A DNA stretch of 64,000 bases from Antedon mediterranea (Eukaryota > Animalia > Echinodermata). Positions 11,296 to 54,100 of the stretch are shown piece by piece. Location: the NCBI RefSeq assembly GCF_964355755.1, contig NC_092679.1:16847432-16911431 (forward strand). Direction: 5' to 3'. Positions within the stretch are counted from its first letter, which is position 1; each line of letters starts with the position of its first letter. Position numbers and translations under genes: made by a program. The notes under the pieces are model-generated. The model saw only the letters and a list, made by a program, of their open reading frames with translations, searched no databases and was not told the origin of the DNA.

Positions 11296-12029
11296 AAAAA
11301 CACGAACTAGGTTGTAAAAAGTGAAGGAAGTCATTATATTTTATTATTGTTTGGTCTACCCATAGTTATAGCAGGGAAGAGTTAAATTTAACTCTTCCCT
11401 GGTTATAGGTAATAAAGGATGCCTATCATAGTCAAATGGCAATAACTGATTAGCCGAGACCAATGACATTTAAAACAACTCCTACTTAAAATTCCCTACT
11501 TATACAGTACAGCAGCTTTTTGATTGGCTGCAAGTTTAGTTTTCTGTTCGTTCATCAGAAATGGTATACATAATTATTAATCAATAAGATTACTGGATTT
11601 CTTTAGTATTTCTGACACATTTCCAATCTTAATTGAATTATTAATGTAATGGAAATTGGTCATAGGCCTATTATAGCAACATATCATTTCTGGAAGAGTA
11701 TTACGGTCTGTATAGATCGATGTTAAAACACACGTCCTCATTTATCAAATAATTCATTCACTGCACATTTATTCTGTTAAGAAGAACTGGGACCCTCAAT
11801 AGAAGCCAAAGCATGTCTCATGATGGCCTCTACAATACATATCAAACATAAAAAGATATGGAATATTTTTATTTTTACAGCGGCACACGTTCATCATAAA
11901 CGATGCGTTCTTAAAAGTATAAATTTAAACAGCAAACGGATACAAATCAATAGGGTAATTAGGAACAAAAGAATAACACATTTTCAAAACCCATCGACTC
12001 GATCTCTTGTATACAGTAAATCTAACAAA

Positions 12030-23100: not shown

Positions 23101-26100
23101 AGTAAACCTATAAACTCTTAAGTTCTATGGAGTATTTGGCAATGAAAACTACATATAAAGTACTGAGCAGTAGCATAAAAACCTAGATTTACAGTATAAA
23201 GTACTGTACAAAAAGCTAACATAACCAATCAATTTGTTATAGAGCACTTAGCATAGCTTCAGGCTATAGATGTTCCCATTGTTACAGTAATTATCTCTCA
23301 GATACCTATCTGCTGTTGACATTTTGGGTCATGTACTATTCTGCTATTGGTTGATTATATGTGCCCTGTACATGTATGTCATCATAGGTGTATGAATCAT
23401 CAAGGTACATAATAATCTATTCTATTTATAATCCTATGGTAAATTCAGGAATTGATTTTTTTTTAATTCATTAGCTATTTATTTATTATTTTAAGTTGTT
23501 TATCATTTTTTGTTTGTTTAAATAATAATATTTCATATCTTAATATTTGTTTTGTGTTTTTCCTTCAGATCAAAATTTCACAAATTAAAATTCGGAACTG
23601 ATCCTTCTGGGGAATTAAAACCACCAACGTTTGAAGGAGGTATGTATAAATTTATACTTTGATACTGTGTTTGAATTAAGAATAAATTCTTAAAGATATA
23701 TTGTCCCCTCAAAAAATTATTTTATACATTTTTTAATGAATATCCAAAAATTGGATCAGAAAAAAAAAATTTTTACATGAAAAAAAATTTCAAATTGACT
23801 GGAAATCAATGGGTTTTTAAAAGAGCCAAAATATTAAAACCAAAGCACTATCAGTGTCAGGCAAAAATCGGAGACAATTTTAGACTTACTCATGATGGAA
23901 TTTGCATTTAATTCTGAGGTAGGACTCAAACCCAGGACCTACAGATCACTACCCGACGTTCATCCTCTAGATCATTAAGCTTAACTCACATTCTTGTGTC
24001 TGATTGGTAGTTGTTATTTGATAATAAATTAATAATAAACCACAATGATGCTTTTATTTTGTTCCCCATCTTTCGGATTGGACATTGAGAACTAGGAATG
24101 TGCTTAGTTGTTAGGTTTTCATCAACAGAACTATACAAAGATTACCATACAGAGTTTGGTATTTACCATTGTCTCTTATGTGATTTATTAAAGTGGTCAT
24201 TTGTTCGTCACACCTGATTTTATTTCTTTTTTTTTTTAATTTTCAGATGATATAAGTGAAGATGACTCTGTTATCTCTCCAAATGCACAAGTCAATTTCA
24301 AACAAGGAAGGCAGTTACTTAGGCAGTAAGTAATCCTTATGTGTGTCACATGACTGATATTGTGTAAACAAATGCAGTGGGAGCGGGGATGGTTATTGTA
24401 TTACAAATTGTAAATGAAACATAAATTATAATGTCACCTTTCTTTATGACTGACATTGACAACCTATTGTTCATGGAACCATAGCAATACACTGTTGTGT
24501 GACTGTTATACACAAGTGGTTGTGATACAGTGTCGTGTGCTACCTGTATCATAGGAACAATGTAAAGATCTGTCTACACTATCAAACTTTATGTGACAAA
24601 AAAATGTGATGTGCCCATATATGGATCACACTTTTTCTGTCAAACTAGTTTGATAATGTAGACAGAGCTTAAGAGACACTATATGGATTCTAACCTTACT
24701 GATCCCATTAATTAATTAATTTGATGCCAAAAATATAATGCTTACCTTATTAAAGTGATTCTTACCTTAGTGAAATAAGGAGGCAAAGAGTATTACTCGT
24801 ATAGACTGCCTCCTCTCATAGTGTTTATGTGCGAGTCATATGTACGTTTAAAAGTTTTTAGTGTTGGGCTTGAAACAATGTGGTAAAGGTAATAAATTAT
24901 CTCTACTAAAGGTATTAAACCGGGATTTACACAACTTAAAACGATGACCTCGCCATAATACATAATTTACCTCTGTTTAAACTTGTTTCAGATATTTACA
25001 AGAGATTGGTTATACCGACACAATCCTAGATGTACGATCAAACCGAGTGCGGTCTTTACTTGGCCTACAGTCCGGTGAACAGAATTCAAATAATGTAGAA
25101 AGTGATGGTACCTCACCTGTAGAGCCATTAGTGAACGGAGAGAGCCCAGCAAAACCAAACCGATCAGACCCAAATGCAATTAAAAGGTATTGTAATGTAT
25201 AATTATTCCATTAATATACTATATAAATAATGTATAAACTACATTTAAATCCATTTGATTTTTTAATTTTGTATCATATCCTGTTCATTATTGTTTCACA
25301 TTTAAACAGGTTTTTATCAGATAAAAAAAAACGTTGAGCTATTCTTTAGAATGACGCATGGTGGAAAATAGTGTGTAGTATTTGCCATTTATAACTGCCC
25401 TATCCTGCAGCCAATTTCCGAGTGCAGTATTTTTAACGGGCCTAGCCTGACAATTTTTAAACTCCACTCCCAAAGACTTGTAATAGGTATCCCAATGAAA
25501 GCGCACAGAGGGGTATCACTTTTGAAATATTGACGAAATTCGAAAAAGTAGTATGACTTTGATGTTAAATAAATCGTATTCAATCTTAATTAATACTTAC
25601 AAAATTTATATTGTTTGAAAGTACTTGTTTTAATCTATGTATAAGTGTGTTTATAATTAAAATTAATGAATTAGTTGCCGAGAAAATGCGATTTTAAAAC
25701 GGTTCTAAAATCCCGTCGAGCCGATTTCCGCGCGTTGAAAACCTCATCGGAAAATCCCCATCAGTTTTCAAAACACGATCGCACGATTACCATTGGAGCT
25801 AGCGGATTAATTTTTGTTGTATGTTATCAGGCTTTAAATAAGCTTTAATTTGATACGAAAATCGTCTTCTATAAATAGGTTTTTCGTAACGAAAAGGTAA
25901 TTTTTGTGACAAAAATCCAATTTTGATTCACCGTTTATGGAAAAATATTATGGATTTTGGTATTAAATTATAGCTAAATCTACATTGAAATCGATAAAAC
26001 ATAGTTTACAAACGTATTGTGCATGGTAATTGAGCGAACTACATTTTAAAATGGTGCATGAGGCGTAAATCCCGTTCAAAATTTTAAAGATCCAACCATT

Positions 26101-29100
26101 ATAATCCGGTGAATATTGTAGTGAGTAAAATATTGTACTCTAAAATACGCGCGTGTTTGTTGTGGCGTTTTCCGTTAAATACATTAATGCACCCTATCAG
26201 CGAATGGTACGTTCCATATTTTGAACACGTTGTTTAGTTTTCCTCGCTCGAGTTCGACCGGCTCGACGCGAGATGTGTGACAGCAGCGATGTCGGAGATT
26301 GACATGTCCTTTTCCGTCGTAGAATATCTGGTTTTACACATTAATTTAACAACTTAAAATTGATGTAATGTGCGGAAGATTTATTATGCAAGTATACAAT
26401 GCAAATGCGTTAGGTTAAAATGTACCGAGGAAATTTATTAAGCTAATTTACCAACGTTACATTTGACTCTGTATACGGCGGCCGAAAGTCATTAACTGCG
26501 ACCGAAATACTTTAACGGAGCGACTACTGATCGCGAGTAAGCCGTGACTTGGCCTAAACTTTAGCTCCGTATTTCAATTTAATAACGTAATAATACGAAA
26601 AGAAAACAATTTTTATAATGTTATATATACTATTCAGGTAAACAATTAATTGTTTTAATTAACATTGATTATTTTAAATGAGTTTATTTTGACCCATACT
26701 GTGCGTTTGCCTTAAAAGAGCATATTTTACTTAGCAGCCCGGCTTAGATTTGGTGTCATAATCATATGGGCCTAAAATCTTGTTTTACGTATTCAAAAGT
26801 TATATATAATAGTATTTATGATTGAAATTATAAATATAAAGTATATTAAAATATTCTAATAATTATACTTACCGAAAATTAGTGTAAAAGAAAGGAAACA
26901 GTACACACCGTTTTTAACATACTTTTTCATTTTTTCTTTTTATAATTTTAAATTTCACCATTAAAACAATTTTTTTTTTTCATATACACATCTAAAATAT
27001 ATTTATTAATGAAATATACACTACATTCTAACAAGTACAAAAAAAAATTCAATGAATTAGTACAGTAGTTCAAAAGTTACAGATCATTGAAAAATAGCAG
27101 TTTTTTCATTTTTTTAGGGAATTCCAGCAAAAATGGGCGTTAAATGCTTTCCTACCACTTTGCGGACCAATAATTTAAAAAATAGGTTTCGTTGAGGCTC
27201 CAAAAAAAATAGAGTTGTACAGTCTATATCGTGCCTAGCTTACCTGGATAAACCAACATAAGCCTCTCTCTCCGACGAGAGGTAAACATTACGAAAAGAA
27301 GAACATTAATAACATTAATTTTTCCCCACCCCCGTCGGATAATGGATCAGTCCGCCACCAGTACGCCCTCAAGTGAGACACACCCACTTATCATCGTCAT
27401 CATTTCTTTTCGTAACGTCGTTGTGTACGTACGTCTTTTCTGAACACATTCCTGGAATTCCTGAGGAATTTGCGATAAAGACTTTATACTGTAGACTGGA
27501 AGAGAAGAATAGAGCAAGAAAACGAAGCTAAGTGTAGTAGATCGTTATCTTGTGGTTGGATACGTTTAGAATCGTTACCCTTGGCTAGTTGCCAGGAGTT
27601 AAAATTTAGCGTTGTAAGCCGTTATCCAGTGTGTTTCACCTGGATAGAAATACTGGAAGATCTTTTGTTGTTCGTTAGGCTAGTGGGGAAAAGTAGGTCT
27701 GTTAGATCACCATGCCTAAGCAGGAGTGTGTTAAATGTAGGGGTCCCCGCTCTACCGTGAAGTGGGACCGCCACTTGGAGTGCATAAATTGCCGCACGTG
27801 TACCGAGTTGTCGCCGTGCGATGTTTGTGTCCGCTGGACACCGTCCAAGTTCAAATCGCTCACTAGGCCTAAAGAACGCACGGAAGCTGTACCACCTCCG
27901 GAGGTGGGTACCGCTGATACGGCAGGCCCTCCTGTCGTTGCGCCGGAAGTTAGCCTTCCAGATATGCCTGCACCGGCTGCGGCCTCTGCGGTTCCGGGGG
28001 TGAATGAGATTTCTCCGGGGTTACTGCAAGCCATTGTTGCAGCTGTGAGAGCTCTGCCGAGGGATGAGCCTGAGGTACCCTCTCAGATTAGACCTCCTCC
28101 CCAGATTCCATACATTGATGTTGGCCCACAGCAGACCTCGTTTTTCGATGGTTCGTCCGTCCGGCAAAGGGACTACGATAGTGACAGGACGATGGCCTCG
28201 CTCTCTGACGATGATAGAGATAGCTTACGAGAGCAGGCCGGGCCAGGGGAGGAAGGTCTGCAGGCGCTAGTTATGCGGACGGTCCCCGCGGTGCTGTCCT
28301 TTCTCGGCGTCGATTTCACGTATCGCGAGCCTAAACATACTCCTTCGTCTAAGCGGTTTTCCACTTTTGGCGTACGCACGCCCTTTAAGAAGGTATCTTC
28401 GTGCCCGGTTACGCCTCTCGATCCAGAACTTGTGGAACGTGTGGAGCTGATCGCTAAGGAGTCCAAGATTCGTAGGCCTATGCCTTATAGCCTGTCATCG
28501 GCTTTTCCGGTGCCGCAGAAACAATTCGAACTGTACATCGCGGCGCCGAGCGTCCCGGAGGCAGCGAAGGAACGGGTCCGTGAGGACCAGAACCTGGACC
28601 CGTCCAGGACTAATTTTTTGAAGCCTTCGGAATCCCGCACAGAGGACGTCCTTACGTCCGTCGACAGGGCCGCACGCGAGACGCTTAGAGCCGCCTCTAT
28701 GGCCGGGTACTTGCTATCCTTTCTGGCTGATCCAGAACATCCGCCCCAGGGCGATTCGGACGTGATAGCTCTACTACAGCAGATCATGGGCCTGGTTGTT
28801 GATCAACAGGCAACGATCTCATTATCTGCGGCCGCGGCCCGTCGCGTTAACGTCTTGGGTGCAACTGACATCGCACCGACCGATTTCCGTAGGTTTACTA
28901 CGTCTGACTCCTTCGGGGCGCAGGACTTGTTCTTTGGCTCCTTCTCACAGAAGGAAGATAAATGGGCCCGTGAGAGGGAAGCTCGTCGGGAGACAAGAGC
29001 GCGCTTCCCGCAAAAACGCCGAGCTAGCAATTCACGCTCAAGGACAGCCGCACGACCGCCGCCTGCCCCTGCTGCTCCTCAGCAGATGCAGCCTCCCCCG

Positions 29101-32100
29101 CCGCCACCGGCTCAGCCTATGCAAAGTCAGGCTTCTACATCAAGACAGGCTTCACACCCCCCTCGCGGAATGCGAAATAGGGGTGGCAAAGGCGCCACCA
29201 ACAGGAGTGGTCGCCGGTATTATAATGTGAAGCGCCGGTGACGGCTTGGGGGCGCCCGTCCCTCCAAGCGAGGGCGGGCAGGTGGGGGGTCGCTTGAAAC
29301 GGTTTTCACGGGTTTGGGAGACCCTGACCACAGACAGATGGGTTCTCTCCACCGTGACACACGGGTATCGTATCGAATTCTCGAGCCCTCCGGTGAGCGG
29401 AGGTGCCCGGCACACGAGGATTCCGTCAGAGCCGGAAAAGAGTCAAGCGCTCATGACGGGCCTCGAAGCACTGCTCCAGAAAGGAGCTGTGGTGCATGTT
29501 CAAAAAGAACAACTTACGATCCCGGGACACGAATCCACCGTTTTCCTCGCCCAGAAAAAATCGGGCGATTGGCGACCCATCCTAAACCTCAAAAGTCTGA
29601 ACAAGCGGTACATTCGGCCCCGCAGGTTCAGGATGGAGACTGTCTCATCTATCCTGTTGGGGCTAAGACGAGGGGACTGGGCAGCCACAATAGACTTGAA
29701 AGACGCGTACTTTCACGTGCCTATTGCGCAAGAACACCAGAGTTGGCTGCGCTTCCGCATTCACGATCAGGTATACCAATTCGTAGCTCTGCCGTTCGGC
29801 CTCTCAACGGCCCCACGAGTGTTTACTCGTCTAGTGAGAACCCTGGCGGCGTTCTTTCATCAACACGGCATCAGAGTGTTCATGTACTTAGACGATTGGT
29901 TGATCGTGGCCCAGTCCAGGGACCAGCTGCTGAGCAGCTTATCTTTTGTCCGCCTCGTGACGGAACAAGCAGGGTTCATAATAAACGAGGAGAAGTCATG
30001 TCTTCTCCCTTCTCAGAACCCTCTGTATCTCGGAGCCCAAATAAATTTGGTTACGGGCCGTGCGTGCCCATCCATCGAGCGTGTGGCCAAGGCAAGAACT
30101 GCAGTGCTACATCTTATCAATGCTCAGGCTCCGACGGCGTACGACTGGCTACGCACCTTGGGGTCACTGGCCAGCTTCGTCGCCCTCGTTCCGTTCTGCC
30201 GGTTAAGGATGCGGCCTCTACATCTGCACCTTCTGGCAGCATACCGCCCAAGATCAGACTCTCTACACAAGGTGGTTCCAACGAATGCGTTCATTATCTC
30301 GCATCTCGAATGGTGGCTCGTGGAAGACAGGTTACTTGTGGGCACACCTATACAAAGGTCAATTCCGGAGGTCCGTGTGGAAACGGACGCATCCGAAGTA
30401 GGCTGGGGCGGTCACATACCGTCTCCGGACATTCGCGTCTCCGGCCTCTGGTCGCCCGAGGAGACGCGCGCCCACATCAACCTGCTCGAACTTTGGGCAG
30501 TCGAGCGCTCATTGGAGGCTCTTCTTCCCCATCTGGCAAATCGCCATGTTCTCGTCAATTCCGACAACACAACCGTCGTGGCATACATAAACAGGCAAGG
30601 GGGTACACGGTCCCCCACGCTATGTTGCCACACGTGGACGTTGCTAATGTGGTGTATAAGACACAACATCCAACTGTCAGCGGCCCACATTGCGGGTCGT
30701 CTGAACATAGTGGCGGACGCACTGTCCCGTCCACTTCTACGTCCTACGGAATGGCGTCTTCTTCCAATAATCGCCACCCAGATCTTCAACCACTTTGGGC
30801 GGCCCCATGTAGATCTGTTTGCGACGTCAGGCAACACGCAGCTCCCGACGTTCTGCAGTCGATATCGGGATGCACATGCGTGGGCGGTGGATGCCCTGTC
30901 CATACCATGGGACAACCTTTGGGCATATGCCTTTCCACCGATTTCAATACTGCCACTGGTCCTGACGCACATTCAGCGCCATCAATGCCGAGTCCTACTA
31001 ATAGCGCCGTATTGGCCCAGGCAGCCGTGGTTTCCACTGCTTCTAGGCCTTCTGTACGATCAGCCGTTACGTCTTCCGATTCGGAACGACTTGCTGACGC
31101 AGGGCCGAGCTCGGTTTGCTCTACCGAACCTCATATCCCTCGACCTGACTGTATGGCCATTGTCAGGGATCGTTTCAGAGACTCAGGCATTCCAGATGGT
31201 CCGGCCGCCCTCGCGGCGAAATCCCGACGGGAATCCACTCTTGCTGTCTACAATAGCCGATTAAAACACTTTTTCGAATGGTGCAAGCGCCAGAAGACCG
31301 ACCCTATGAAAGTGACTTTGGGCCAGGTCTGCGCTTTCCTACATTACCTGTTTGAGTCAGGTCTGCAGGTTCGCACCGTATCCGGCTATCGGTCTGCCTT
31401 GGCTGCAGTAATTCCGAATTTTAAAGACGGCTCGACCATCTCTTCATCCCCTGCAATTTCCAGTTTGCTTCGCGGGATGTTTCGAGAACGGCCTCCTACT
31501 AAGGCCCTGATTCCACGTTGGGACGTCAATGTCGTCCTAGCCGCTCTTATGCGTCCACCCTTTGAGCCCCTGAGTAGGGCATCACTTTACAACCTGACTC
31601 TCAAAACTGCCTTTTTGATTGCACTAGCCTCGTGCAAGCGCAGAGGTGAACTGCATGCTCTTTCTCTGGAGCCAGGGCACATCAGGTTTGAACGGGGTGG
31701 CGCGCGGTTGGTTTTTAGAAAAGATTTCCTTGCAAAATCTCAGACATTGAACTTCTCGCCGCCGACTGTGTTTATTCCCACCATTGCTGCATATTCAGGG
31801 GTTGAGGAAGACAGACTTTGGTGCCCGGTGCGGGCACTAAAGTTTTACATCAAACGCACAGAGTCCATTCGGGTCTCAGCGTCACATCTGTTCGTATCGA
31901 CAGTTGCACCCTTCCGACCGGCTGCTCGGTCGACGCTGGCAAACTGGGTCGTGGCAGCCATCCGGGCTGGTTACGACTCCACAGATACGCCTCCTCCGGC
32001 ACATATGCACCAAGTGCGTGGCATAGCCGCTTCATGGGCGCTGTTTGCTGGGGTGCCCCTTCCAGACATCCTGCAAGCGGCATGGTGGCGATCACAGTCC

Positions 32101-35100
32101 ACCTTCACATCCCACTACCTGTCGGATACCTCCGCAAACCAGTCTACGGTGGCGGCTTTAATCTTGAAGCCCAGACACTAGGTATGTATGACAATGTTTA
32201 CCTTGCCTCCCGCCTCCGACTAGACTCTAGTCCGGTGCTACACTGGCTTATGTTGGTTTATCCAGGTAAGCTAGGCACGATATAGACTACACAAACCAAC
32301 AGTGGTGTTGGTAGTCTATGAGTGCCGCTTACCTGGATAAACGCCCTCCCTACCGTCCCCTCAGGCAGGTGGTCTTGAGAAATGATGACGATGATAAGTG
32401 GGTGTGTCTCACTTGAGGGCGTACTGGTGGCGGACTGATCCATTATCCGACGGGGGTGGGGAAAAATTAATGTTATTAATGTTCTTCTTTTCGTAATGTT
32501 TACCTCTCGTCGGAGAGAGAGGCTTATGTTGGTTTATCCAGGTAAGCGGCACTCATAGACTACCAACACCACTGTTGGTTTGTGTAACTCTGTGATATCT
32601 ATAGGTTTAACAAAATTCAAAACTTTTAACTAATTATTGTAAAAGTTATAACCTTTTAAAAATGCTTCCAATTTCAACTGCAAAAAACACCATTTTTAGG
32701 CAAAAAATCGTATATTTTTTTACCACTTTAAATAACCATAACTTTAGAACGGGTAATCGGATTTCAATCATTTAAATCGCAAAATGCTAATTACATTAAG
32801 TTCTTTATGGTTAACTGAAAGAAAATGTAAAAAAATTAATCTGAATTTTTTCATTGGGATACCTACTTGTAATAAGACTTTGTTTATGTAGAACATCTTG
32901 TGATGTTTGTGTTGTTTACAGGATTCCCACCTTTAAGAAAGATAGTGAATGAATTTATCCTTGTAAATTCACCTAAATATAAAAAAAAACTTTTTATTAA
33001 AAATGGAAGTGGCAATTCATTGAATAGAACAATCTTTCAACGTATAAAAATATCCTTCCCATTCATAAACTATGACATTGCTAGAAAAGAAATAGACTAT
33101 AAGAATTACAAAACGAATTACTCTTTAGTGTTCTCAATTTAGTTTCTGTTTTTGTATCAAAAGATCAGCCCCTTTTTTTGTGTTTTTTTTATGGGCATTT
33201 TATCACAATAATATTATTTTCACTTGGCAAGGGCATAATTTGAGATAAAATCCTGAAAAAGTCAAAAATACAAATTGATATAAATCGCCTTCATACAATC
33301 AAATGTGCAATCTTATCATGAAAGCTATTTTTACCGTTGAACAGTGAAATTTCACTTGTGTAAAACAGAAAGTACTCGTCGGTACTTCTAATATTTTGGC
33401 AACTTATTCAATGTAGTCGTGACACCCCTTTGATAACCTGTACGTTTAGATATGCACTTAAATCTGAACTATAAATCATTTTAGTATCCTGTTTTTCTTT
33501 CTTTTTCTATTCAATGATAAGTTGGTATTCTTATTATGTACCTTTACTTGGCATTAATGTCATTTTTAATACCCTAAAAAATTCAGATGTACTGTAAGCT
33601 CACCCTGAGTTTTGATTAATTAATTTTACGCACACACAGGAGCACACGGTTTCATAGACAGTATGAAATTGGTATTAAACGTGGTTCCCACTAGTACGTC
33701 AAGCAACGTAAGAAAATGCCCTTCAAATAATTGTGTTTTCCCCTGCGTCAGAAAATCAAAACCTGATTGTTGTACTTCAACATTGCCGTAGACTTTAACC
33801 TGGTTTACTCCACATACTTTTGAGTACGTGTTGTACTACTGTATTTTTCCACTGTTCGTTTGCGTTGCTGCATGAAATCAAACTGATTTGATTTCTTGTA
33901 GCGATGTTTTGCAGCACTGTTGCGTCATTCGTTCCCACTTGTGATTGCGCAAATATAGCACTCTGCGTCGATACGTCACTGCATTGTGTTCTAGTGGGAA
34001 TCACACTTTAGACTTACACATTGTTTTCAAGAACACAATTTTGTACAATTGCTAAAAATATTATCTGTTGATATAAGTTTGCGGTACACCACGTATGTCG
34101 ACGTTTCGATCAATATGCTTTGATCGTCCTCAGGAGTGTGAATGCAGAAAGTCATGTACCGCAAACTTTTGATTTTGATTTTTGCCATGCAAATTACTAA
34201 ATAAATGCGTGAATCTCACAAAAATAAATGCATATTTAGTTCAATTATGAGATTAAAAACAAGCAGAACTTCCTTTTGTATAGAAACTGCTATCTTGCTT
34301 ATGTTTACATTTCATTTTATAGTTGTCAGTTTCTCCCTTTATTTAAATTAATTATTTATTTTGCACGGATTGGTAAACTACTTTTAATTCCTGAGCTCAC
34401 GTTCATTCTGTTTAATTAAGATACTAATCACTTAGTAGGAAAGATGCGATATTGATTAATATTTGGTTTGATGTTTTATTCATCTTTTTCATCATTTTTC
34501 ATATTAATTTATGACATGTTTTGTACGGAATCTAAATTAAAGTTAAATTACGATTTTCTTGCTACCAGATTCCGGCTTCAGTCTGAATGTTTAGACTTAG
34601 ACTCGCGCTTATTTGATCAGATTTATAAAACAAATAAATTAATACAATTAATAGAATCCAGTAATAGGTTGTTGACAGATTTGTTTATATTATGTTAATT
34701 AGGCAAGATAAAAGAATACCTAACCAGTTACCCGAGGGCGTATTAGATAATGTTCTTTCGTCGTTTGAATTACTTGGAAGTGAAAACGTTGAAGAAACCG
34801 AAAATGGTGACCTAGAAGATGGCGGTACAGCAGATGACGAGGCTGATGATAGTATGAACAAGAATATGGCAACTATTATTAAAAGGAAAAAGGTAATTTA
34901 ATTTTTTATAATAATTGTTACATAATATACATACTACAAGAGAAAATGTCTGTATGTATCGTTTTTTTAAAATAATAATATTTTTTGTTTGTATAGTGCC
35001 ATTCCAACGATCATTGATCATGGCGTAGACTTGCCCAAGTCTGTAGTTATTGTTTTTTTTATGTTAGTCCACCAGTCGGCTTTTTGATGTTTGTCTGAAA

Positions 35101-44100: not shown

Positions 44101-47100
44101 GTATGGATTCTACTATTTGTTGTTGGGGTATGCCAGATATAAATATGGATCCATATGATTCCTATGGTACGTACAATTGTCGGTAAATGTTACAAAAGTA
44201 ATCTGCCGAAATTACATATAAGATAAGATAAGATAACTTTTATTGATCCTCAAAAAGGAAATTCATTGCTCGTCATAATAACAAAGAAAACACTATAAAA
44301 ACAAATATAGCATAAAACCATTCATATAAAAACATCTAAAAAATTACAATATAAAATTATCTTCTTGACTTCCTGTTGTACTGGATGATACCGGAGGGAA
44401 TAAAGGATTTAGCAAATCGATTTGTTTTCACACTGAGGAGCCTCAATCTACCACTTGGATTAAGTTGGTCTATGATCACTTTGTGGAGAGGATGAGAGGC
44501 ATCCGACTCAATGCGTTCGAAATCTTTCTGGAGGTGTTCTAGGTGCACTTCGGTAAAGGAAGGCAGTTCCAGACCAATCATTTTACCAGCCCGACGGATG
44601 AAAGTTTCAAGGCGTCCTTTATTCCCTCCGGTAACATTACCAGCCCAACAGGAGAGGCAATACGTCCAAACACTACATATAACGGATCTATAGAACGAAA
44701 GTAACATCAAATCACAGGAGTTAAATTTATATAAAGTTCTCATACAATACATTCTGGGACTTAATTTTTTGCTGATGAAGTCTATATGGTCTCCCCAACT
44801 CAGTTTATCATTGAAAACAATTCCTAGATACTTGTACTGGTCAACAATTTCAATTTCTTTACCTTTGATAGTGATTGGTTGAAAATTAAATTTATGTTTA
44901 GTCCTAAAATCAATGATCATCTCCTTTGTTTTTGATGCATTTATTTGGAGATAATTATCGTCACAAAATTTAACAAATCTTTGTATTTCGCTACGATAAT
45001 TTTCATCATTGTTTGAAACTATGAGACCAATAGTGCTAGTGTCATCAGCGAATTTAACAACGGGGCAAAGCTCATCATTTAAAGATCTGTAATCCGCCGT
45101 ATACAAGGAATATAATTTAGGTGCGTTGACAGTACCCTGAGGAACACCGGTGTCAGAGGTTACGATTTCTGACTTAACACCATTAATATTAACAAATTGT
45201 TTTCTATCACAAATGAAATTTAAAACTAAACGAACAATCGGACGGGGAAACTCCATATTCAACATTTTGTCTGCTAAGATATGGGGTTGTATGGTATTAA
45301 ACGCAGATTGAAAATCAAAATACATAATACGTGCCGAGTGGCCTTTCTTTACATTATCTAGATGTGAATACAATTTATGTAATTTAAAATAAATCGCATC
45401 ACTGGTACTACGGAGTGATCGGTAAGCAAATTGCAACGGGTCTAACACTTTTTCAGCATAAGGTTGCATAATTTTTAAAATAATACGTTCCAATATTTTC
45501 ATCGCGACAGACGTGAGTGCAACGGGTCTCAAATCATTCATGCAGTTAATCTTAGGTTTCTTAGGTACCGGTATTATGCATGAAAGTTTCCAAATATCCG
45601 GGAACGCATGATAAGAAAGACACATATTGAAAATAAATGTAAATATACCATCAAGGTGAGGAGAGCAGACCTTAAGTACTCGTGGTGGATTTAATGGACT
45701 TAAACAATTTTTGTTTGCCTAAATTACGTTGATTTACATATTATTATTATTATCTTTATTTCCCAGATTGCAGTATATTGAAAGAACCATTGATCGGCCA
45801 CACCAATGCAGTGTGGGATATCGCATTCGACGCCACCAAAAACCACCTTGTATCGGCCTCGGCTGATGGTACTGTAAGGTTATGGAACCCTCAACAGAAG
45901 TCTCCACTTCTAAATAAGTACATTGGAGAAAAATGTAAGATATGATATGGTTTATCTCTCAGTCATATCTCATGACTAACAATACGGTAGAACCTCTATT
46001 TAAGGGACACCTTCGTGACCAAACAACTTTGATTATCATATTTCATCATTGTCTTGTCTTTCTTTAGCCTATGGAGTTCCAACCACTGTTGATTTTGTAC
46101 GCTGTGACCCGTGTCAAATTATCGTTGGCTACAAATCCTCAGATGCTGTCATCTATGACCTGGAGACAGCGAAACCAGTGATAACGCTAGATAGCAAGTT
46201 ATTGTCCGACACTGATGGAACCACACAGATTAATTGTGCAATTAGCCACCCAACTCTACCTATAACCATTACTGCACACGAGGACAGACACATACGCTTC
46301 TTTGATAATAATACAGGTAAATCATATATGTCTCTATACCACAAATAACATACATAAAATGTTTACAAAATCTGTTTTATCTTTGTATTTGTGATTTTTA
46401 TTTGTTTCTGTCTTTTCCGTTGGTTTCCTGTATAATTTTTACCGTTTTTAAATACTTTTATCAGTTTATACATTTTAATGTAAATACACAGTAATTCAGC
46501 TTCGGCTGCGGCAGTGATATGAATAAAAGAATATACTCAAATAATGGTTCTATTTTATAACGGCTTCATAGTGGTCTAAATAAACTAGAAAATGTGAATT
46601 GTCATGCATATTTCTATTCATGTTTTAGGTAAAATGGAACACAGTATGGTGGCTCATTTGGATGCTGTAACTAGCCTGGCCATCGATCCAAATGGATTAT
46701 ATCTCCTATCTGGAAGTGAGTATTTGAATAATGTCTTAACTGGTTTGACAAAAGTGTGATGTGCCCAAATATGGTAGTCATATGCCCAAATATAGTAGTG
46801 ATATGACATCATCATGTCCATATATATGGGCACATCACATAGTTTGACAGAGCTTTAGACCAATATGCTCTACGGTAACTACAATACTTTGAACCCATCT
46901 TTTTCTGTCTTGTTGTGTTTGACCAGATTCTTTACTTTCATTGCCTCGTCCTTTGGATGGGACATGATGTCACTGGTCCTTTTTTTAAAATTTTAATGGA
47001 TGTGGTCCAATAGGTGGTCTAATTCGGTGCCATTCTTTATAGATGATAGGTAAATGCCTACATAATAATTTACAACCTAATTAATATATTTTTATAGTTA

Positions 47101-47460
47101 TATGTAACCTTTTTATGGTGGTAATTTTTTATATTTTTGTATAACAGAACGTTTGTAATTTTGTAATTTGAATAATGCTTTTTACCTGTATTTTATATAA
47201 AGATATTGATTGCTATTTTTATTCCATAATAAAACAAATTCCATAGTTGTTTTCTATATTAATAATTGATGTTATTGTCGTTGCTTCCAGGTCATGATTG
47301 CTCGATTAGACTGTGGAACCTAGAAAGTAAAACGTGTGTCCAAGAGATAACGTCACATCGAAAGAAGTTTGATGAAGCGATATACTCGGTAGCCTTTCAC
47401 CCTAGCAAACCCTACATTGCAAGTGGGGGTGCTGACGCTCTGGCCAAAGTCTTTGTATGA
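17103..47460 (+). CDS. STRN3: Striatin family protein (STRN/STRN3-like, STRIPAK scaffold), complete spliced CDS of about 796 aa
   Basis: Seventeen phase-compatible GT-AG exons: 17103-17312, 20182-20285, 23569-23639, 24247-24325, 24992-25186, 34703-34892, 37012-37159, 39200-39313, 42575-42691, 42787-42923, 43036-43217, 43693-43740, 44045-44166, 45767-45934, 46068-46316, 46629-46715, 47291-47460 (2391 nt). Motifs: YTIPGILHFIQHEWARFEMERAQWEVERAELQARIAFLQGERKGQENLK, GRQLLRQYLQEIGY, EALAEFDFL, WD40 repeats ending GADALAKVFV. Alternative in-frame ATG at 17094. The vertebrate paralogue name is nominal. Confidence 0.95.
20781..21706. mobile_element. Degenerate PIF/Harbinger-like element containing a tandem repeat of about 175 bp (20930-21565)
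   Basis: Termini GGTCCTGTTCAGACC / GGTCTGAACATACCC flanked by TTA on both sides. Internal unit ATAAATTGTCTCCCTATATA recurs at about 21122, 21297 and 21471. Confidence 0.6.
22319..22821. mobile_element. Non-autonomous CA...TG element with 8-bp TSD (P- or hAT-like), nested in a Tc1/pogo-like MITE (22251-22901)
   Basis: TSD GTTTTAAC at 22311-22318 and 22822-22829. Subterminal inverted repeats GCCGAAGGCTAGA and GGAACCAACAAGATGG. Outer element ends AGTAGAACCTCT / AGAGGTTCTACT. Confidence 0.75.
27712..29241 (+). CDS. DIRS ORF1, Gag-like protein (509 aa)
   Basis: ATG-initiated ORF with N-terminal Cys/His cluster (CVKC...DRHLECINC...CDVC) and basic, Pro-rich C-terminus. Its position first in the element fits DIRS1 gag. 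Confidence 0.85.
   Translation: MPKQECVKCRGPRSTVKWDRHLECINCRTCTELSPCDVCVRWTPSKFKSLTRPKERTEAVPPPEVGTADTAGPPVVAPEVSLPDMPAPAAASAVPGVNEISPGLLQAIVAAVRALPRDEPEVPSQIRPPPQIPYIDVGPQQTSFFDGSSVRQRDYDSDRTMASLSDDDRDSLREQAGPGEEGLQALVMRTVPAVLSFLGVDFTYREPKHTPSSKRFSTFGVRTPFKKVSSCPVTPLDPELVERVELIAKESKIRRPMPYSLSSAFPVPQKQFELYIAAPSVPEAAKERVREDQNLDPSRTNFLKPSESRTEDVLTSVDRAARETLRAASMAGYLLSFLADPEHPPQGDSDVIALLQQIMGLVVDQQATISLSAAAARRVNVLGATDIAPTDFRRFTTSDSFGAQDLFFGSFSQKEDKWAREREARRETRARFPQKRRASNSRSRTAARPPPAPAAPQQMQPPPPPPAQPMQSQASTSRQASHPPRGMRNRGGKGATNRSGRRYYNVKRR
29246..31264 (+). CDS. DIRS ORF2: reverse transcriptase - RNase H - methyltransferase-like domain
   Basis: VGGRL..F...W, WRPILNLK, IDLKDAYFH, LPFGLSTAP, YLDD; RNase H TDAS / INLLEL / SDN / NIVADALSR; C-terminal DLFAT...YAFPP...IAPYWPRQPWF. 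The frame is open from 29231 and has no AUG near its start. Confidence 0.93.
   Translation: MGAPVPPSEGGQVGGRLKRFSRVWETLTTDRWVLSTVTHGYRIEFSSPPVSGGARHTRIPSEPEKSQALMTGLEALLQKGAVVHVQKEQLTIPGHESTVFLAQKKSGDWRPILNLKSLNKRYIRPRRFRMETVSSILLGLRRGDWAATIDLKDAYFHVPIAQEHQSWLRFRIHDQVYQFVALPFGLSTAPRVFTRLVRTLAAFFHQHGIRVFMYLDDWLIVAQSRDQLLSSLSFVRLVTEQAGFIINEEKSCLLPSQNPLYLGAQINLVTGRACPSIERVAKARTAVLHLINAQAPTAYDWLRTLGSLASFVALVPFCRLRMRPLHLHLLAAYRPRSDSLHKVVPTNAFIISHLEWWLVEDRLLVGTPIQRSIPEVRVETDASEVGWGGHIPSPDIRVSGLWSPEETRAHINLLELWAVERSLEALLPHLANRHVLVNSDNTTVVAYINRQGGTRSPTLCCHTWTLLMWCIRHNIQLSAAHIAGRLNIVADALSRPLLRPTEWRLLPIIATQIFNHFGRPHVDLFATSGNTQLPTFCSRYRDAHAWAVDALSIPWDNLWAYAFPPISILPLVLTHIQRHQCRVLLIAPYWPRQPWFPLLLGLLYDQPLRLPIRNDLLTQGRARFALPNLISLDLTVWPLSGIVSETQAFQMVRPPSRRNPDGNPLLLSTIAD
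29314..32181 (+). CDS. DIRS ORF3: tyrosine recombinase with long N-terminal extension overlapping ORF2
   Basis: C-terminal part has SRRESTLAVY, YRSALAA, LKTAFLIALASCKRRGEL (Arg), CPVRAL, HQVR (HxxR), AAWW and FTSHYL (Tyr). The true start is uncertain; the frame is open from 29242. Confidence 0.9.
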   Translation: MGDPDHRQMGSLHRDTRVSYRILEPSGERRCPAHEDSVRAGKESSAHDGPRSTAPERSCGACSKRTTYDPGTRIHRFPRPEKIGRLATHPKPQKSEQAVHSAPQVQDGDCLIYPVGAKTRGLGSHNRLERRVLSRAYCARTPELAALPHSRSGIPIRSSAVRPLNGPTSVYSSSENPGGVLSSTRHQSVHVLRRLVDRGPVQGPAAEQLIFCPPRDGTSRVHNKRGEVMSSPFSEPSVSRSPNKFGYGPCVPIHRACGQGKNCSATSYQCSGSDGVRLATHLGVTGQLRRPRSVLPVKDAASTSAPSGSIPPKIRLSTQGGSNECVHYLASRMVARGRQVTCGHTYTKVNSGGPCGNGRIRSRLGRSHTVSGHSRLRPLVARGDARPHQPARTLGSRALIGGSSSPSGKSPCSRQFRQHNRRGIHKQARGYTVPHAMLPHVDVANVVYKTQHPTVSGPHCGSSEHSGGRTVPSTSTSYGMASSSNNRHPDLQPLWAAPCRSVCDVRQHAAPDVLQSISGCTCVGGGCPVHTMGQPLGICLSTDFNTATGPDAHSAPSMPSPTNSAVLAQAAVVSTASRPSVRSAVTSSDSERLADAGPSSVCSTEPHIPRPDCMAIVRDRFRDSGIPDGPAALAAKSRRESTLAVYNSRLKHFFEWCKRQKTDPMKVTLGQVCAFLHYLFESGLQVRTVSGYRSALAAVIPNFKDGSTISSSPAISSLLRGMFRERPPTKALIPRWDVNVVLAALMRPPFEPLSRASLYNLTLKTAFLIALASCKRRGELHALSLEPGHIRFERGGARLVFRKDFLAKSQTLNFSPPTVFIPTIAAYSGVEEDRLWCPVRALKFYIKRTESIRVSASHLFVSTVAPFRPAARSTLANWVVAAIRAGYDSTDTPPPAHMHQVRGIAASWALFAGVPLPDILQAAWWRSQSTFTSHYLSDTSANQSTVAALILKPRH
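34089..34140 (-). ncRNA. Candidate minimal type I hammerhead ribozyme (Penelope-like element relic)
   Basis: Minus strand reads CUGAGGA-C-GAUCAA(AGCAUA)UUGAUC-GAAAC-GUC, enclosed by a 14-bp inverted repeat AAGTTTGCGGTACA / TGTACCGCAAACTT. Confidence 0.55.
40414..40598. mobile_element. MITE with about 30-bp TIR
   Basis: CCTGTTTTCCTGTCGACGCTATCA / TGATAACGTTGACAGGAAAACAGG, with TAA-like flanks. Confidence 0.6.
43388..43566. mobile_element. PIF/Harbinger-type MITE inserted in a tRNA-derived SINE head
   Basis: TIR AGCGTGGTTCCCACTAG / CTAGTGGGAACCACGCT, TAA TSD. Related copy at about 33678-34007. The flanks (43333-43387, 43570-43577) rejoin into a minus-strand A-box/B-box SINE head. Confidence 0.85.
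44217..45690 (-). mobile_element. 5'-truncated LINE (Rex1/Babar-like, CR1/L2 group) in striatin intron 13
   Basis: RT ORF extending upstream to PPRVLKVCSPHL near 45688, short 3' UTR, (ATCTT)n tandem tail at about 44217-44236, no evident TSD. Confidence 0.88.
44357..45625 (-). CDS. LINE reverse transcriptase, N-terminally truncated (endonuclease missing)
   Basis: NDLRPVALTS, LDPLQFAYR, DFQSAFNTI, GVPQG, LYTAD, KFADD, KTKEMIIDFR, YKYLG. Uninterrupted for at least 422 codons. Confidence 0.85.
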   Translation of the reverse strand: MCLSYHAFPDIWKLSCIIPVPKKPKINCMNDLRPVALTSVAMKILERIILKIMQPYAEKVLDPLQFAYRSLRSTSDAIYFKLHKLYSHLDNVKKGHSARIMYFDFQSAFNTIQPHILADKMLNMEFPRPIVRLVLNFICDRKQFVNINGVKSEIVTSDTGVPQGTVNAPKLYSLYTADYRSLNDELCPVVKFADDTSTIGLIVSNNDENYRSEIQRFVKFCDDNYLQINASKTKEMIIDFRTKHKFNFQPITIKGKEIEIVDQYKYLGIVFNDKLSWGDHIDFISKKLSPRMYCMRTLYKFNSCDLMLLSFYRSVICSVWTYCLSCWAGNVTGGNKGRLETFIRRAGKMIGLELPSFTEVHLEHLQKDFERIESDASHPLHKVIIDQLNPSGRLRLLSVKTNRFAKSFIPSGIIQYNRKSRR

Positions 47461-49075
47461 TGATGTAGTGTGATGTAAATTGAACTATTATAGTGCAGGA
47501 ACTTAACTGGAAACCGTTCGGTTCTATACACATATGCACGATTTGAAGTAACCTATCCAGACGAAAAGCTTCAAAACGGAACCTTGATGGAATTATAATC
47601 TGGATTTTATCGAAAATTCAATGTCGGGGTCTGTTTTTGTGTGTATGTGTACAGCGTCCAATGTGCATTGTTTTAAATAATACATGTATAACACGTGTAT
47701 AAACTTACTCTTTACAAGAAGTTACTTCGGTATTATATTACAGTCATTGAGCAGATCGGAAGGGGATCGTACCCAGCTCTGCGGTTTTAAACCAAGGGCG
47801 CACAAAACTGATGACTTTCGAATTAAAATGATTAATGTAATTAACGCCAATTAAGACTCGAGGTTTGTCTTATTTTTAAATTAATTTCACAGATGAAATA
47901 TTTGTTGTAAAATAACTGATGTAATTGTTTGATATAGAATGAAGAATGAATGAGGTGTATTAAGGTCATGTCGGGTCAGGTCAGGTCGATCAATAGTTAA
48001 CCATAATGTTGTAATTGTAGCAAATATATTATCGTGTATGCTTGAATATTTATTTAACGATCTAGCTGTATAGTTTTGGCAATCGCATTTTTACCTTTGC
48101 TTTTTGGAGTTTTTAATAGACTGGAAGTCGGTTGCTCAATTTCATACAACCATGGATTTTCATAACAAATCAATAATTCATATCCTGTACAATTATCGTT
48201 TATGATTTATTCTACTTATTGCTAATATTTATTTGTCATATTTATGATTATAATATAACATAAGATACTATTATTTTTTCATTTATTGTCTGTAATATTG
48301 TTTTATTTTTTTGTTATAAAAATGTTTTGATATTTTTTTTAACTAATAGATTATTGTAACTTAAAATAATATAATAATTTCATTTAAAATGTGTAGCTGG
48401 TGACGTCCGATTGATTTTGCATAGACATAATAAGTCGTGAAAAAAAATAAAAACTTAGAATTTAGTCTGTACTTTGATAAGCCGTTGCGTAAACCCAGAT
48501 AAACAATAGAACATTCATTAAACCGTCAATTATTTCCTCCACAGATTTATGTGTTGTAAATTACAGTCTTTCTAAACTATAGGTGGCAGCAGATACATTT
48601 ATATGATCATGCAGAAATCGTTAAACTGTTCAGACTTTAATCATGGAGTAAAGAATAATTATTCTTATTCTTTACTCCATGCTTTAATACATAGTAAACA
48701 TTACATTATTAGTGTAATAAGATGAATAGTGACAAATATCCATGAATGTAATATGGCAACCAATTAAAGAATTAAAGACGCAACAGCTGACATGTATTCT
48801 ATTCATATTTGATTTTTTTTTACCTATATTGCATTTTTTTCTTTTTTAGAATACTCTATGCTCTATAATACCTCCTATTATTCATTATTTCTTTGTGGTA
48901 CATTTATAAACACCAAATAATACCTCTTTTATATGTACGTTCAGCAGTGGTTTATAAATTAGATAATGCTTGACCTTGACCTACCAATTTGGTTTATTGT
49001 TTATACCGCTGCTGAATTCATCCATGCTTTTCATACGTGTTTCTTTTTTCCGTGCATCAACATACGATTTTTTAT

Positions 49076-49844
49076 ACGCCGTGGTTAGGATTCCGGCACC
49101 GGAACTCAACTGCCCACCGTTAGGGAATCCGACACGATATTGCGCATGCCCAGAGCTCTGGGAAGTGAATTATAGCTTGCACTAATAGTGCCACACACCA
49201 CACCACCGAGAGTCGGAGTGTTATAGGGATTTACTGTAGCCTAGATAGTCGAGTCGTTGCGCGAGCGAGAGATGGATGAAACTTGGCCTATGCCATACAT
49301 GAATTAATAATTAAAATACGACTACGCCACGCGTTAAAATAATTATAATGATATTAATAAGAATCAGTATCTATCTAAGAATCGTAATGCTGTTTTTAAC
49401 GTTGCGACCCCGAATTCCCGAACAGTTTTTTCACATCCACGCGGTGGCTGCCGTCAACAAATCAACTTGTGAATATTGCATGTTATGTACAGTATATTAA
49501 ATGCGTTATGAAAAACCATAAAACTAGTCATGTAATTATATAATTCATAATGATATGAAGTTTATATATGAATGCAGCAACCACTTTTTAATTACAAAAT
49601 AAATAGGCCCACTGGTCACGTCTAACTGGTAGGCCTAGATTAGTGGATCCCGCATTATTAGTAGGCATCTAGGCTAGTTCGCCGTGTGTGGCGGCGCAGC
49701 TATGAAATGATCCATCGCTGTATAGTCAAAGAATTGGTATAGTATAGAGTCGCCGATTACCTCGCTCTGGGCATGCGCAATAGCGTGTCGGATTTCCTAA
49801 CGCTGGGCAGTTGGGTTCCGGTGCCGGAATCCTAACCACGGCGT
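49076..49844. mobile_element. Non-autonomous element with about 80-bp terminal inverted repeats upstream of MTR
   Basis: ACGCCGTGGTTAGGATTCCGGCACCGGAAC...GCGCATGCCCAGAGC is mirrored at about 49764-49844 with few mismatches. No clear TSD. Confidence 0.75.
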
Positions 49845-50370
49845 TTTTCGCCAGGAGTTCAAGAGGTGCTGGCTAGATATAGAAGTTTCTGTAGGCCCAA
49901 ATATTTTTGTAAGGTGAACTCAAAGCAACATGAACTGTCCAGGTGAGTTTGTACTGTAATTTGATAAAGATTTGACAACCATAATTGAATATACGCTAGC
50001 CTACCCTCGTCTAGTAGGGTAGGCCTAGTAGGAGGTAGGCTACCTAGGGCTAGGGGCCTAGTTCAAGCAGGTTACACCCGCCCGGTATACCACGAAGGCT
50101 AGCTGCTTGACCGGCTAGGGATTAACTAGCCTATATTATATGCCTGGCCTAGCCAGTTCTATTACTACAATACATGCTACCACAAACTAACTAGGCCTAG
50201 GCTACACTGGTTATGAAAAGTAAACAATCTTTTATTCCAAGTGCCCCATCCATCGTTCAAAATTGTTATTTTTAATGAAACAATTTTTTAAATTTAAATT
50301 TTAGTTCAGATTTATATCAGGTGAAACCACAAGGCAAGTCTCTAATAATTCATCAATTCTTTGAAACAGG
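49845..50370 (+). promoter_or_regulatory. Putative MTR promoter and non-coding 5' exons
   Basis: Strong donors CAG|GTGAGT (49942/49943) and AGG|GTAAGT (50370/50371), acceptors near 50320 and 51099, and an AGGCCT-rich tract after the first donor as in TBCB intron 1. Confidence 0.5.
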
Positions 50371-51126
50371 GTAAGTTCTAATGTACTGACTTTAGTCAAA
50401 GAATCTCCTGTTCGTCCGAAGCGCGTAACAATTTCGAAAGGCATTGTGGGATAGAATAGAGCTAATGGGTGGCGCCATTGTGAGCCATGGAGTAGGGCGC
50501 CCGAATCAAATTAGAAAGTCAAAATCATAGAGGGGATCTGCTAATACTCTAGGGGGGTAGAGTAATTGACTTCCTAGTTTGGAGGGGGCGCTGCTCCATG
50601 CTGTGAAATAGCGTCGCCCAGTTTGACCTTTTAACCCTGTACTTCCGATACTGTGTTTTGAATGCAAATTGAAGAACAGGAGATTCTTTGCTGTAGTTAG
50701 TTGTTGTTGTTGTCTAATTGTCAATAATATGTTGTTATGCCTAGAGAATGCACTTGTGAATTATATGACACACTTTAAAACCCCTAGGAGAGCTGTGTCA
50801 TTTGTCTGATGTGCGTCATACCTTATGAATACCATGACGCACCCGTACAGCAAAAATATGAAACCATAAAATTAAAATACTAGTCTTTAAACAAATAAAA
50901 ATATTCAAATCGTAAGCATTCATTATTTATTTTATAATATACAGTACTGTATAAAATAATGTGTTTTTGTTGAGAGTTTTTAAAATTGGTATTGTTTCGT
51001 GTTGATATAAATATTGTAATTATGATGTATTTTAAGACGAGCAATGTAATTTTCTCATTGTGGGAAAGAATAAAGATGATACTTGATACTCTCTTCTAGA
51101 GTGGTTGAAAATAAATATATATTAAA

Positions 51127-54100
51127 ATGGGGGTCGAAACGGAGATTGCCAAGACACTGCAGGAGCGGATTATGATCTTTGATGGTGGAATGGGTACAAT
51201 GATTCAAGCATTAAAATTTGATGAAAATGAGTTCCGTGGCGAGGAGTTTAAAAATCATCCAAAATCATTGAAGGGTAACAATGATCTGTTGTCTCTTACA
51301 CAAGCAGATGCCATCTTAAAGATACATAAGGTATGATTGAACATTTAAAAAAAATGTAGTGTCTAGTCATAGATGCAATCCCCATGCTATACCTATGACA
51401 ACAAATTTTTTTTACTAAAGAAGATACTATGAGTTTCGAACCGTAGCCTAATGCTACAGCATGATGTTGCGAAACCCAAGCTACCGACCAGCTTACAGTA
51501 CAATGCAACGACATTAGTTTTTTATCTAACGTCATTGGTGGCACTATATACATAGATATACTGTAGTCTGGAGATTGTATCTACGACTAGTTGTAGATGC
51601 AGCCAGTTTGTTAAAAAAAATAAGATAATAAATTATTTGATTTTGTTGATTGCATAAAGCTCTGTCAACACTATCAATCTTTATGTGACAAAAAAATGTG
51701 ATGTGCCCATATATGCCCATGATGATGTCATATAACTACCATGTTTGGGCATATCACTACCATATTTGGACACATCACACTTTTTTTGTCAAACTAGTTT
51801 GATAGTGTAGACAGAGCTTAATGTGGCATTTGTTCATTTTATTAATGCAACATGCTACGCTCGATGGTCTTACCTTTGACATCCGGAAACTGGTTTTGAC
51901 AATTTTCTGTATGGATAACAATTTCTTTCCTTCTTAAAAATTAAAAACAAATATAGATATAAAAGGCAAGGAAAGACCAAACAGGTGCTATTTACATGTA
52001 TGCTAATTGGTCAACCAAAAACTGATAAAAACAAGATAAATAAATATCTACAAATTACAATATTTAGACGGTCTTTTAATATAAAAGGTCTTAAAAAACA
52101 TTGGAAATCATGATATATGTTGGCCTACTGTATGTCTGATTTTGTCAAAAACTCTAACCTGTGTCAACTGCAACAAATTCCACAGTCTTGAAGTTTTTCT
52201 CCTCACTTGTAGTAGGGGTATCCTTAGTATCGACAGGTAATGTCTATTTTCATTTTTATCATATTTCAGGATTACCTACTAGCAGGTTCCGACTTTGTTG
52301 AAACAAATACATTTAGTGGAACCAGTGTTGCACAAGCTGACTATGGATTAGAACACATTGTAAGTATTATTTTTATTTGAGTATAGGCCTACATGTATAC
52401 CTTTAATTAAAGACGGCCACCCAGCAAAACCCTGCCAGCCTGGGGAGGAGATAGGCACCACTTGGAGATATGACTTTATGCCTGTGTATCATATCATAAT
52501 GCTCGTACAACTACTGTATCTCATCTGCAACGCATGGGGCAAGAGAGGACGAGAGAATTGTTTTTAAAGATTTTGATTTACTATATTATTTCACTCACAG
52601 GTTTACCGATTAAATAAAGAATCAGCACAAATAGCTAAAAAGGCTGCAGAGGAAGTGACTAAAGAAACAGGTGTCCAACGCTATGTTGCAGGGGCTTTAG
52701 GGCCGACTAATCGTACACTATCCATCTCACCATCTGTTGAACAACCAGAGTTTAGAAACATAAGTATGTTTATTCATTGGATTCTAGTCTCATATCAAAA
52801 TATTGAATTGTAAATCTATGCTAATATATTTCATTAATAATGCTTATATATTAGTAAGTGAGTGGCCGAGCGGTTAAGACAGTGGAACCGTAATTACATA
52901 GCCATAACATCGGCAGGGGTTCAAGGCTCACTCACTCATGGTTCTGGTGGTAGAACGAGTCTTCTCGGATAAGGACTATAAACCGTAGGTCCAGTGTACA
53001 CATCTAGCTCGTGTGCACTTTAAAGAACCTAGTACATCTTTCGAGACGAGTAGGGGGTTACCCCGGTGTATTAGTACATCATAGCCACTGATCATAACTG
53101 AGCCCTCCGGGAGACCAGTATTTGACTGAAGAGGTCACCCAGTATAAATATATATTTCAATCAATCATAAACCTTATTTTGTTGAGTCAAGTGGTTAAAG
53201 CAGGCTGAGGAACACTCTGCAAACCATGTTGATATTGGCCCAGGTTCCAGGCTTCTCGGTAAAGAAGACTTAAATTAGGGTTATCCTGGTCCATATACAC
53301 CTAAGCCCATTTAGTGGTAGTTCTGCACAAAGGGAAAGTGTACACTATCAAACTAGTGTGATGTGTCTAAATATAGTAAGTGATATGACATCATCATGTC
53401 CATATATGGGCACATCACATTTTTTTGTCACATACAGTAAAGTTTGATAGTGTAGACAGAGCTTTAGGGAAGATAAAAGTCCACTGCACTTTAATACGTA
53501 AAGCATTATAAGCAATTTACAGCATATTTATTATTCTAGAATCTGGTGGTAATTTTTTACTAGGCCATTTAGCACAGATTTTTGACCAGCAAATGTGATT
53601 TTATTAACAATTTATATGCAATGCTGGTATTAAATCCAATCATATTAAGTATTCAAACAAATTATGAAAGATGTTTTTTTTTGTGATTTTTGAACAATTA
53701 AATTTTGAAATTTTACAAAAAATGTTTTGAATTAGTAGAGGCATACACAAAGCAAATTATGAAAAAGCGTTATTGTGTAGTTTTAAACACTAAATTCAGA
53801 AAATACTATGAAATTTGATAATGTATAAAAGTTAACATATTACCGTGTAATGTTTGTTTATTAGCTTTTGATAAACTAGTCGAGGCATACACAGAGCAAG
53901 CAAAAGGACTACTAGACGGCGGTTCAGATGTTTTACTCGTAGAGACTATATTTGACACGCTTAATGCAAAAGCCGCCCTCTATGCTATCCAGTTGCTTTT
54001 TGAGAGTGAATACGAACCAGTTCCACTCTTTGTAAGTAACAACCTATACAGTTTCTTTCAGCTCAACTACACTAAATTTTTAAGTTTAAATAATTTATAT

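Follow-up and report, generated by a model that had tools for sequence, protein, structure and literature searches.

Fly P transposase cuts at the 3′ ends of its element and 17 bp inside on the other strand, a 17-nt stagger described as its hallmark (PMC7776569). The junctions left by fly P excision run from the target duplication through up to 17 end bases, then a blunt join, a microhomology or a templated insert, and again up to 17 end bases, to the second duplication (PMC2895639 Table 1). These junctions come from Rad51-mutant flies, and polymerase theta promotes the inserts (PMC2895639). This type of scar is already known from fly experiments. Among other fly elements, 1360 made a 7-bp duplication in 274 of 279 insertions (PMC3276498) and Galileo is a P-group element with 7-bp duplications (PMC4168063); within the available text of these two papers, we found no cut geometry or excision scar for 1360/Hoppel or Galileo. 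In zebrafish, THAP9 is a deuterostome P-type enzyme that excises Pdre2 elements, with 8-bp duplications, 13-bp repeats and larger donor deletions, and the part of that report available cites the 17-nt stagger only for the fly enzyme (bioRxiv 10.1101/2024.03.22.586318). A literature search that mostly fell outside subscription papers returned no natural P-type scars in an echinoderm; nor did it return a stagger measured in any P element that is from outside flies or makes 7-bp duplications.

Two palindromes in a 64-kb window of feather star DNA (the whole stretch that was analysed), at 48635-48688 (site 1, family 1) and 11365-11408 (site 2, family 2), can be set beside these systems. With the P element of Drosophila melanogaster they share the retention of up to 17 end bases, the same junction classes and ends that start with CA, those of family 1 beginning CATG as in fly P. 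They differ in that the fly data concern an 8-bp duplication and induced excisions in Rad51 mutants, whereas the feather star has 7-bp duplications and natural, segregating germline alleles, and its elements are known here from scars alone. Like 1360/Hoppel and Galileo, they have a 7-bp duplication, and their target words have T as the second letter and, in most, A as the sixth, comparable to the motifs GTTNAAC and GTANTAC; the 7-bp duplication suggests that, within the P superfamily, they may belong to the 1360/Galileo branch. With zebrafish THAP9 they would share an origin in a deuterostome P-type enzyme. We put at about 80% the probability that the palindromes mark the excision of elements from two families of the P superfamily, both making 7-bp target duplications and likely cutting with a 17-nt stagger.

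At site 1, recomputation reproduced exactly the 17+17-bp arms, the 7-bp target-site duplication and all coordinates of the original prediction. The left copy of the duplication (48635-48641, forward strand) matches the right copy (48682-48688, forward strand) exactly at 7 bp, and at no other length tested from 3 to 13 bp. Between them, the left arm (48642-48658, forward strand, starting CATG) and the right arm (48665-48681, reverse strand) are 17 bp each and exact reverse complements, with no outward extension. The 6-bp spacer (48659-48664, forward strand) repeats the inner end of the right arm, its first six letters. The layout is therefore a 7-bp repeat, a 17-bp arm, a 6-bp filler, a 17-bp arm and a 7-bp repeat, with a 40-base palindrome between the repeats. 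We read the arms as retained transposon ends, the left one being probably the 17-nt 3′ tail left on the donor site, and the filler as likely templated repair synthesis. The original prediction had called the spacer templated filler that duplicates adjacent sequence; the copying of adjacent letters held and templating may explain it, but parent sequence or later slippage could also have produced it.

The window contains 55 exact inverted repeats with an arm of at least 10 bp and a spacer of up to 60 bp, and none is longer than the palindrome at 48635-48688. Its folding z-score is -8.8, and none of 200 shuffles was as stable. A detector for exact 7-bp repeats flanking 20-80-bp inserts with exact 10-bp arms matched three times in the window, with arms of 17 bp (48635-48688), 15 bp (11372-11401) and 10 bp (in a low-complexity tract); run with repeats of 6, 8, 9 or 10 bp, it found no case there. 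Chance was modelled with a third-order Markov chain in 2-kb blocks over 1036 simulated windows, of which 23 contained a 7-bp repeat around arms of at least 10 bp and none contained arms of at least 14 bp. When the site-1 arm was searched against the window with three mismatches allowed, it found the two site-1 arms and two 3-mismatch matches in a 24-bp repeat array and nothing else; the search with the second-family arm likewise found nothing else in the window.

Site 1 lies in a non-coding stretch (47458-51129, forward strand) that, as delimited by Pfam hits and translations, runs from the stop codon of striatin (47458-47460) to a coding exon of methionine synthase, whose start is at 51127. 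The scar is 1.2 kb downstream of the stop and 2.4 kb upstream of the exon, in what is predicted from sequence to be 3′ UTR or intergenic DNA. For 73 residues, the first exon of striatin does not differ from a protein named from Antedon mediterranea, and its identity to Anneissia japonica is 93%, which identifies the host as a feather star and agrees with the expectation of such a scar in an animal other than Drosophila. A protein search with the DIRS element of the window had given no more than a hint of an echinoderm.

Six sequencing runs cover the region. Four of them represent one sample, possibly the assembly source, to which runs X3, X4 and X5 belong; X2 has a different organism code and comes from a different study. 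Contigs of X2 to X5 (four of the six runs) were aligned to 47400-49070, and the sampling overall consists of the one sample plus 11 low-depth X2 contigs, two at site 1 and nine at site 2. An assembly error at site 1 was considered and rejected: three of three runs of the one sample, which may themselves be the assembly source, have palindrome-bearing contigs (48590-48675 and 48654-48719) with no other letters. One contig common to both alleles runs as far as 48619 in each of X3, X4 and X5 and there splits into the scar allele and a palindrome-free allele joining 48641 to 48690, and site 1 is therefore heterozygous. Contig depths of the scar and the other allele were 28 and 21 in X3, 155 and 148 in X4, and 8.9 and 10.3 in X5. 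An allele without the insert had been predicted, and the palindrome-free allele indeed has the target once, but with four letters where one is expected after it (three extra) and two other letters. It is not a clean empty site, and could represent either an empty site that has an indel beside it or a different product of repair; the extra and other letters beside the target possibly reflect error-prone repair. These changes sit near the target (48620-48689), and the upstream 1.2 kb is one shared contig in X3. Among the contigs of the one sample (X3-X5), only the scar and insert-free alleles were found, and no allele occupied by a full element.

Sister copies of the site-1 ends appear in the same alignments. 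Depth at site 1 jumps on the palindrome only, and contigs fitting only in part amount to 29 of 50 in X3, 22 of 46 in X4 and 25 of 44 in X5. Most of these are at the palindrome, where their loose ends pile up at 48636-48642 and 48681-48683, the outer ends of the arms (48642 and 48681) included; a few belong elsewhere, for example to a short repeat near 48300-48340. We rebuilt the family-1 forms from the listed centre indel rows, taking each row as the only change of its contig and two rows of equal depth as one contig. Among the rows listed, 11 indel rows gave at least 10 centre forms: 17+17, 17+16, 17+15, 17+2+17, 17+3+17, 16+3+17, 15+1+17, 14+1+17, 16+6+17 and 17+12+17. Sister arms thus measure 14-17 bp, and sisters with none, 1, 2, 3 or 12 letters occur where the window copy has its six-letter filler. 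The 17+16 form has the most contigs among the rows listed (8, 5 and 6), and the 17+2+17 form is also an 18+18 palindrome. In 7 of the 11 listed forms, one arm is prolonged by part of the six-letter filler unit, an extension that could come from templated or slipped synthesis, or could continue the parent sequence past base 17. Both X2 contigs at this site carry the palindrome in other flanks, and reading by hand shows a separate 7-bp duplication in one of them. As a measure of copy number, summed contig depth (34-51 times that of the flank in family 1, about 400 times in family 2) was rejected, and contig counts were used instead.

The second scar, which is absent from the original prediction, was identified by the detector, the simulation and its sister copies. 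It consists of a 7-bp duplication (11365-11371 and 11402-11408) around a 30-bp perfect palindrome (11372-11401; the feature as a whole, 11365-11408, has no assigned strand). The palindrome is 15+15 without a spacer, has CA...TG ends and is unlike family 1 in sequence; its letters would fit two 17-nt ends whose self-complementary 4-nt tips overlap. Contigs of X2 (9) and X3 (143) were aligned to 11297-11500, giving a complete indel table of seven rows and three further rows of inserted letters. A 34-bp form is 17+17 (one contig, depth 242.5), and in a 17+29+17 form 12 nt of the insert copy the end as far as base 17 and no further. The 29-bp form (20 X3 contigs and one X2 contig) and the 25-bp form (11 X3 contigs) each have a 2-nt microhomology. 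Two X2 forms, 16+5+17 and 17+2+13, were read by hand, as was the 25-bp form. In four family-2 forms, one side or both end exactly at base 17; no arm longer than 17 was present in the complete indel table (seven rows; X2 and X3) or among the loose-end rows listed. Since 17 is not set there by the window copy, family 2 provides an independent test of the limit. The ends of family 1 and family 2 are alike at only 8 of 17 letters, and both stop at 17. Family 2 is closer to uniform than family 1, its listed indel forms accounting for about 4,260 of 18,055 in summed depth. X2 has an empty site 2 with a single target copy and no palindrome. In X3, site 2 lies within repeated host sequence, the scar contigs having a depth of 470-478, about ten times the site-1 single-copy level; in another form (depth 387), the scar has been lost by deletion between two GGT words.

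These observations can be compared with what a P scar should look like. A 7- or 8-bp target duplication is expected, and the duplication is exactly 7 bp at both sites; CA...TG ends are kept between the duplications at both. Retained ends do not exceed 17 nt in the listed family-2 forms, and all 11 listed family-1 forms (the window copy included) keep at least one full 17-nt arm, where 17 is defined by the window copy and the fillers are ambiguous. Junctions are mixed in the listed sister forms, with blunt joins, short microhomologies and templated insertions. Sister forms in both families bear out the original prediction: the scars are many, their arm lengths peak at 15-17, and their junctions vary.

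By analogy with the fly P element, the series of events would be as follows. A P-superfamily DNA transposon would have inserted at site 1 with a 7-bp duplication. Transposase would then have cut at the 3′ ends of the element and 17 nt inside on the other strand, so that each flank would have kept a 17-nt 3′ single-stranded tail. End joining, of the polymerase-theta type in flies, would have fused the tails bluntly, by microhomology or after short templated synthesis, and at site 1 the 17 bases of each end were likely joined with six copied bases between them. Tail sequence would predict the product: family-1 tails, which lack a self-complementary tip, should give mixed blunt and filler junctions, and family-2 tails, which end in a self-complementary 4-mer, should give the 30-bp overlap form. 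The tails can account for the difference between the families, since in family 1 a microhomology of at most 1 nt is available with one tail left whole, and in family 2 the 4-nt tip leads to 30 bp. It is also from the fly system that we infer a P-type enzyme as the maker, the strand geometry, the repair pathway and the immobility of the products. The scars are predicted to be immobile dead ends without a function of their own, and the single site-1 scar has no evident function.

The palindromes might instead be mobile micro-MITEs, that is, 25-46-bp palindromic elements that transpose as such and form subfamilies, which we regard as unlikely. Like MITEs, they are short and non-coding, with inverted repeats, duplications and many copies; many copies are dispersed and have duplications of their own, and several forms recur at many loci, as the contig counts of the 17+16 form illustrate. 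In family 2, forms for which no indel is listed account for most of the summed depth, a pattern that a mobile 30-bp element would produce as well. Unlike MITEs, however, they measure only 25-63 bp, have no interior, and differ at their centres as repair junctions do. The variation is central and takes the shape of blunt joins, microhomologies and templated inserts; near-identity over the whole length is not found in family 1, where at least 10 other centre forms are listed. Many identical 40-bp copies, which according to the original prediction would indicate a mobile micro-MITE, were not observed, as the listed sister copies differ at the centre. Recurrent forms are expected where the same tails are joined repeatedly, and one fly junction was recovered 14 times (PMC2895639). 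Fly P transposase binds sites inside its element, beyond the 31-bp repeats (PMC7776569), and such sites are absent here, with only 0-29 filler letters inside. Moreover, a 34-bp element cut with a 17-nt stagger would retain no paired strands.

Scars of P-type excision must also be weighed against extreme internal deletions, arising by aborted sister-chromatid gap repair or by deletion between inverted repeats with no fixed 17-nt cut, of which only the shortest products would pass the alignment filter. Only copies that align over about 30 letters appear, and longer products may be hidden; the six-letter family-1 extension may be copied parent sequence, and a third palindrome in the window (5834-5876, 8-bp duplication) has 20-bp arms. 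Against this, the four independent family-2 forms stop at base 17, the complete indel table is without a longer arm, and two families with such dissimilar ends share the 17 limit. We therefore consider this explanation quite unlikely.

Scars of some other cut-and-paste superfamily, one that cuts deep inside its ends and makes 7-bp duplications, are very improbable. In favour of such a source, no transposase was found among the 120 window ORFs, and the target words fit the 1360 motif KTNBWAB at no more than 6, 6 and 5 of 7 places (three sites only, compared by hand). Against it, scars of hAT elements are built from flank, not element, sequence; here the duplication is 7 bp and the arms are common to unrelated flanks. 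A 7-bp duplication, CA...TG ends and a 17-nt limit are together documented for the P group (PMC4168063, PMC2895639, PMC7776569, PMC3276498), and the hAT element hobo makes 8-bp duplications (PMC3276498). A local fold-back or template switch copying neighbouring DNA into a palindrome, with no transposon involved, would suit a filler that copies adjacent sequence and can safely be dismissed, as the other allele lacks the arms, which in addition turn up next to unrelated flanks in many contigs, including those from another organism's run.

Searches for a parent element and its enzyme found neither. The Pfam scan covered 120 ORFs, namely 117 stop-to-stop frames of at least 62 aa (outside the satellite arrays, the DIRS element and 56.5-57.5 kb) and three DIRS ORFs, and shorter exons would be missed; none of the 120 contained a THAP or DNA-transposase domain. 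A scan for 5-10-bp duplications spaced up to 20 kb found no long element with either end in the window. Among metagenome contigs, a collection not expected to include a feather star, the 17-mer occurred at 92 loci, none with a partner end (at most two mismatches) and a duplication; these matches were read as chance. Twelve of the loci (L006, L012, L015, L028, L042, L045, L046, L050, L063, L082, L086 and L087) form a repeated sequence family in which the 17-mer has a fixed two-sided context and is not an element end; this family has no relation to the scars. Viral contigs, likewise not expected to include a feather star, had no match to either palindrome pattern. The shortest aligned contig pieces listed are about 30 letters, and a parent that shares only 17 letters would therefore probably be invisible in the alignments.

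Since site 1 is polymorphic, the transposon was probably active not long ago, and it may be possible to recover an intact enzyme. We consider it somewhat better than an even bet that both families cut exactly 17 bases inside their ends, that the 17-nt stagger is shared across the protostome-deuterostome split and independent of duplication length, that tail-preserving end joining is common in the germline, that hundreds of scars segregate, and that a recently active enzyme may persist. If true, the 17-base cut of the fly would be at work in a very distant animal. Natural scars of this kind offer a readout without biochemistry, in that the cut can be estimated from the upper edge of the retained end lengths, and end joining in the wild germline can be read from the junction spectrum. 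In annotation, such scars can be mistaken for micro-MITEs or regulatory hairpins.

Several other features of the window were recorded. The third palindrome, a near-palindrome at 5834-5876 (43 bp; 5826-5884 with its flanks), has CA...TG ends, 20-bp arms alike at 18 of 20 positions, a 3-nt loop and an exact 8-bp duplication, and lies about 400 bp upstream of a minus-strand gene with ubiquitin-like and CAP-Gly exons, likely tubulin cofactor B. Candidate readings of its arms, which exceed 17, are another cut length, self-complementary filler or a true mini-element. Some 390 bp downstream of the site-1 scar, a 769-bp MITE-like element (49076-49844) has 81-bp inverted repeats that are 95% alike and no clear duplication. 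A 115-bp inverted-repeat element (50486-50600), about 530 bp before the methionine synthase exon, has ends that share their first 7 letters (9 at the left end) with family 1 and flanks alike at 5 of 8 positions; from these letters, it is possibly a MITE related to family 1. A 7.4-kb element at 25484-32865 has 16-17-bp inverted ends and a 9-bp (or 7-bp) duplication, and contains a DIRS-like retrotransposon (27311-32474). The retrotransposon has inverted ends, and its long open frames encode a reverse transcriptase and a tyrosine recombinase. A LINE-type reverse transcriptase frame of 453 aa (44357-45718, minus strand) lies in a striatin intron. Upstream of striatin, two 97-bp satellite arrays (7071-9572 and 12057-16496, the second with 46 copies) run in opposite orientation, with an array of 194-bp period between them.
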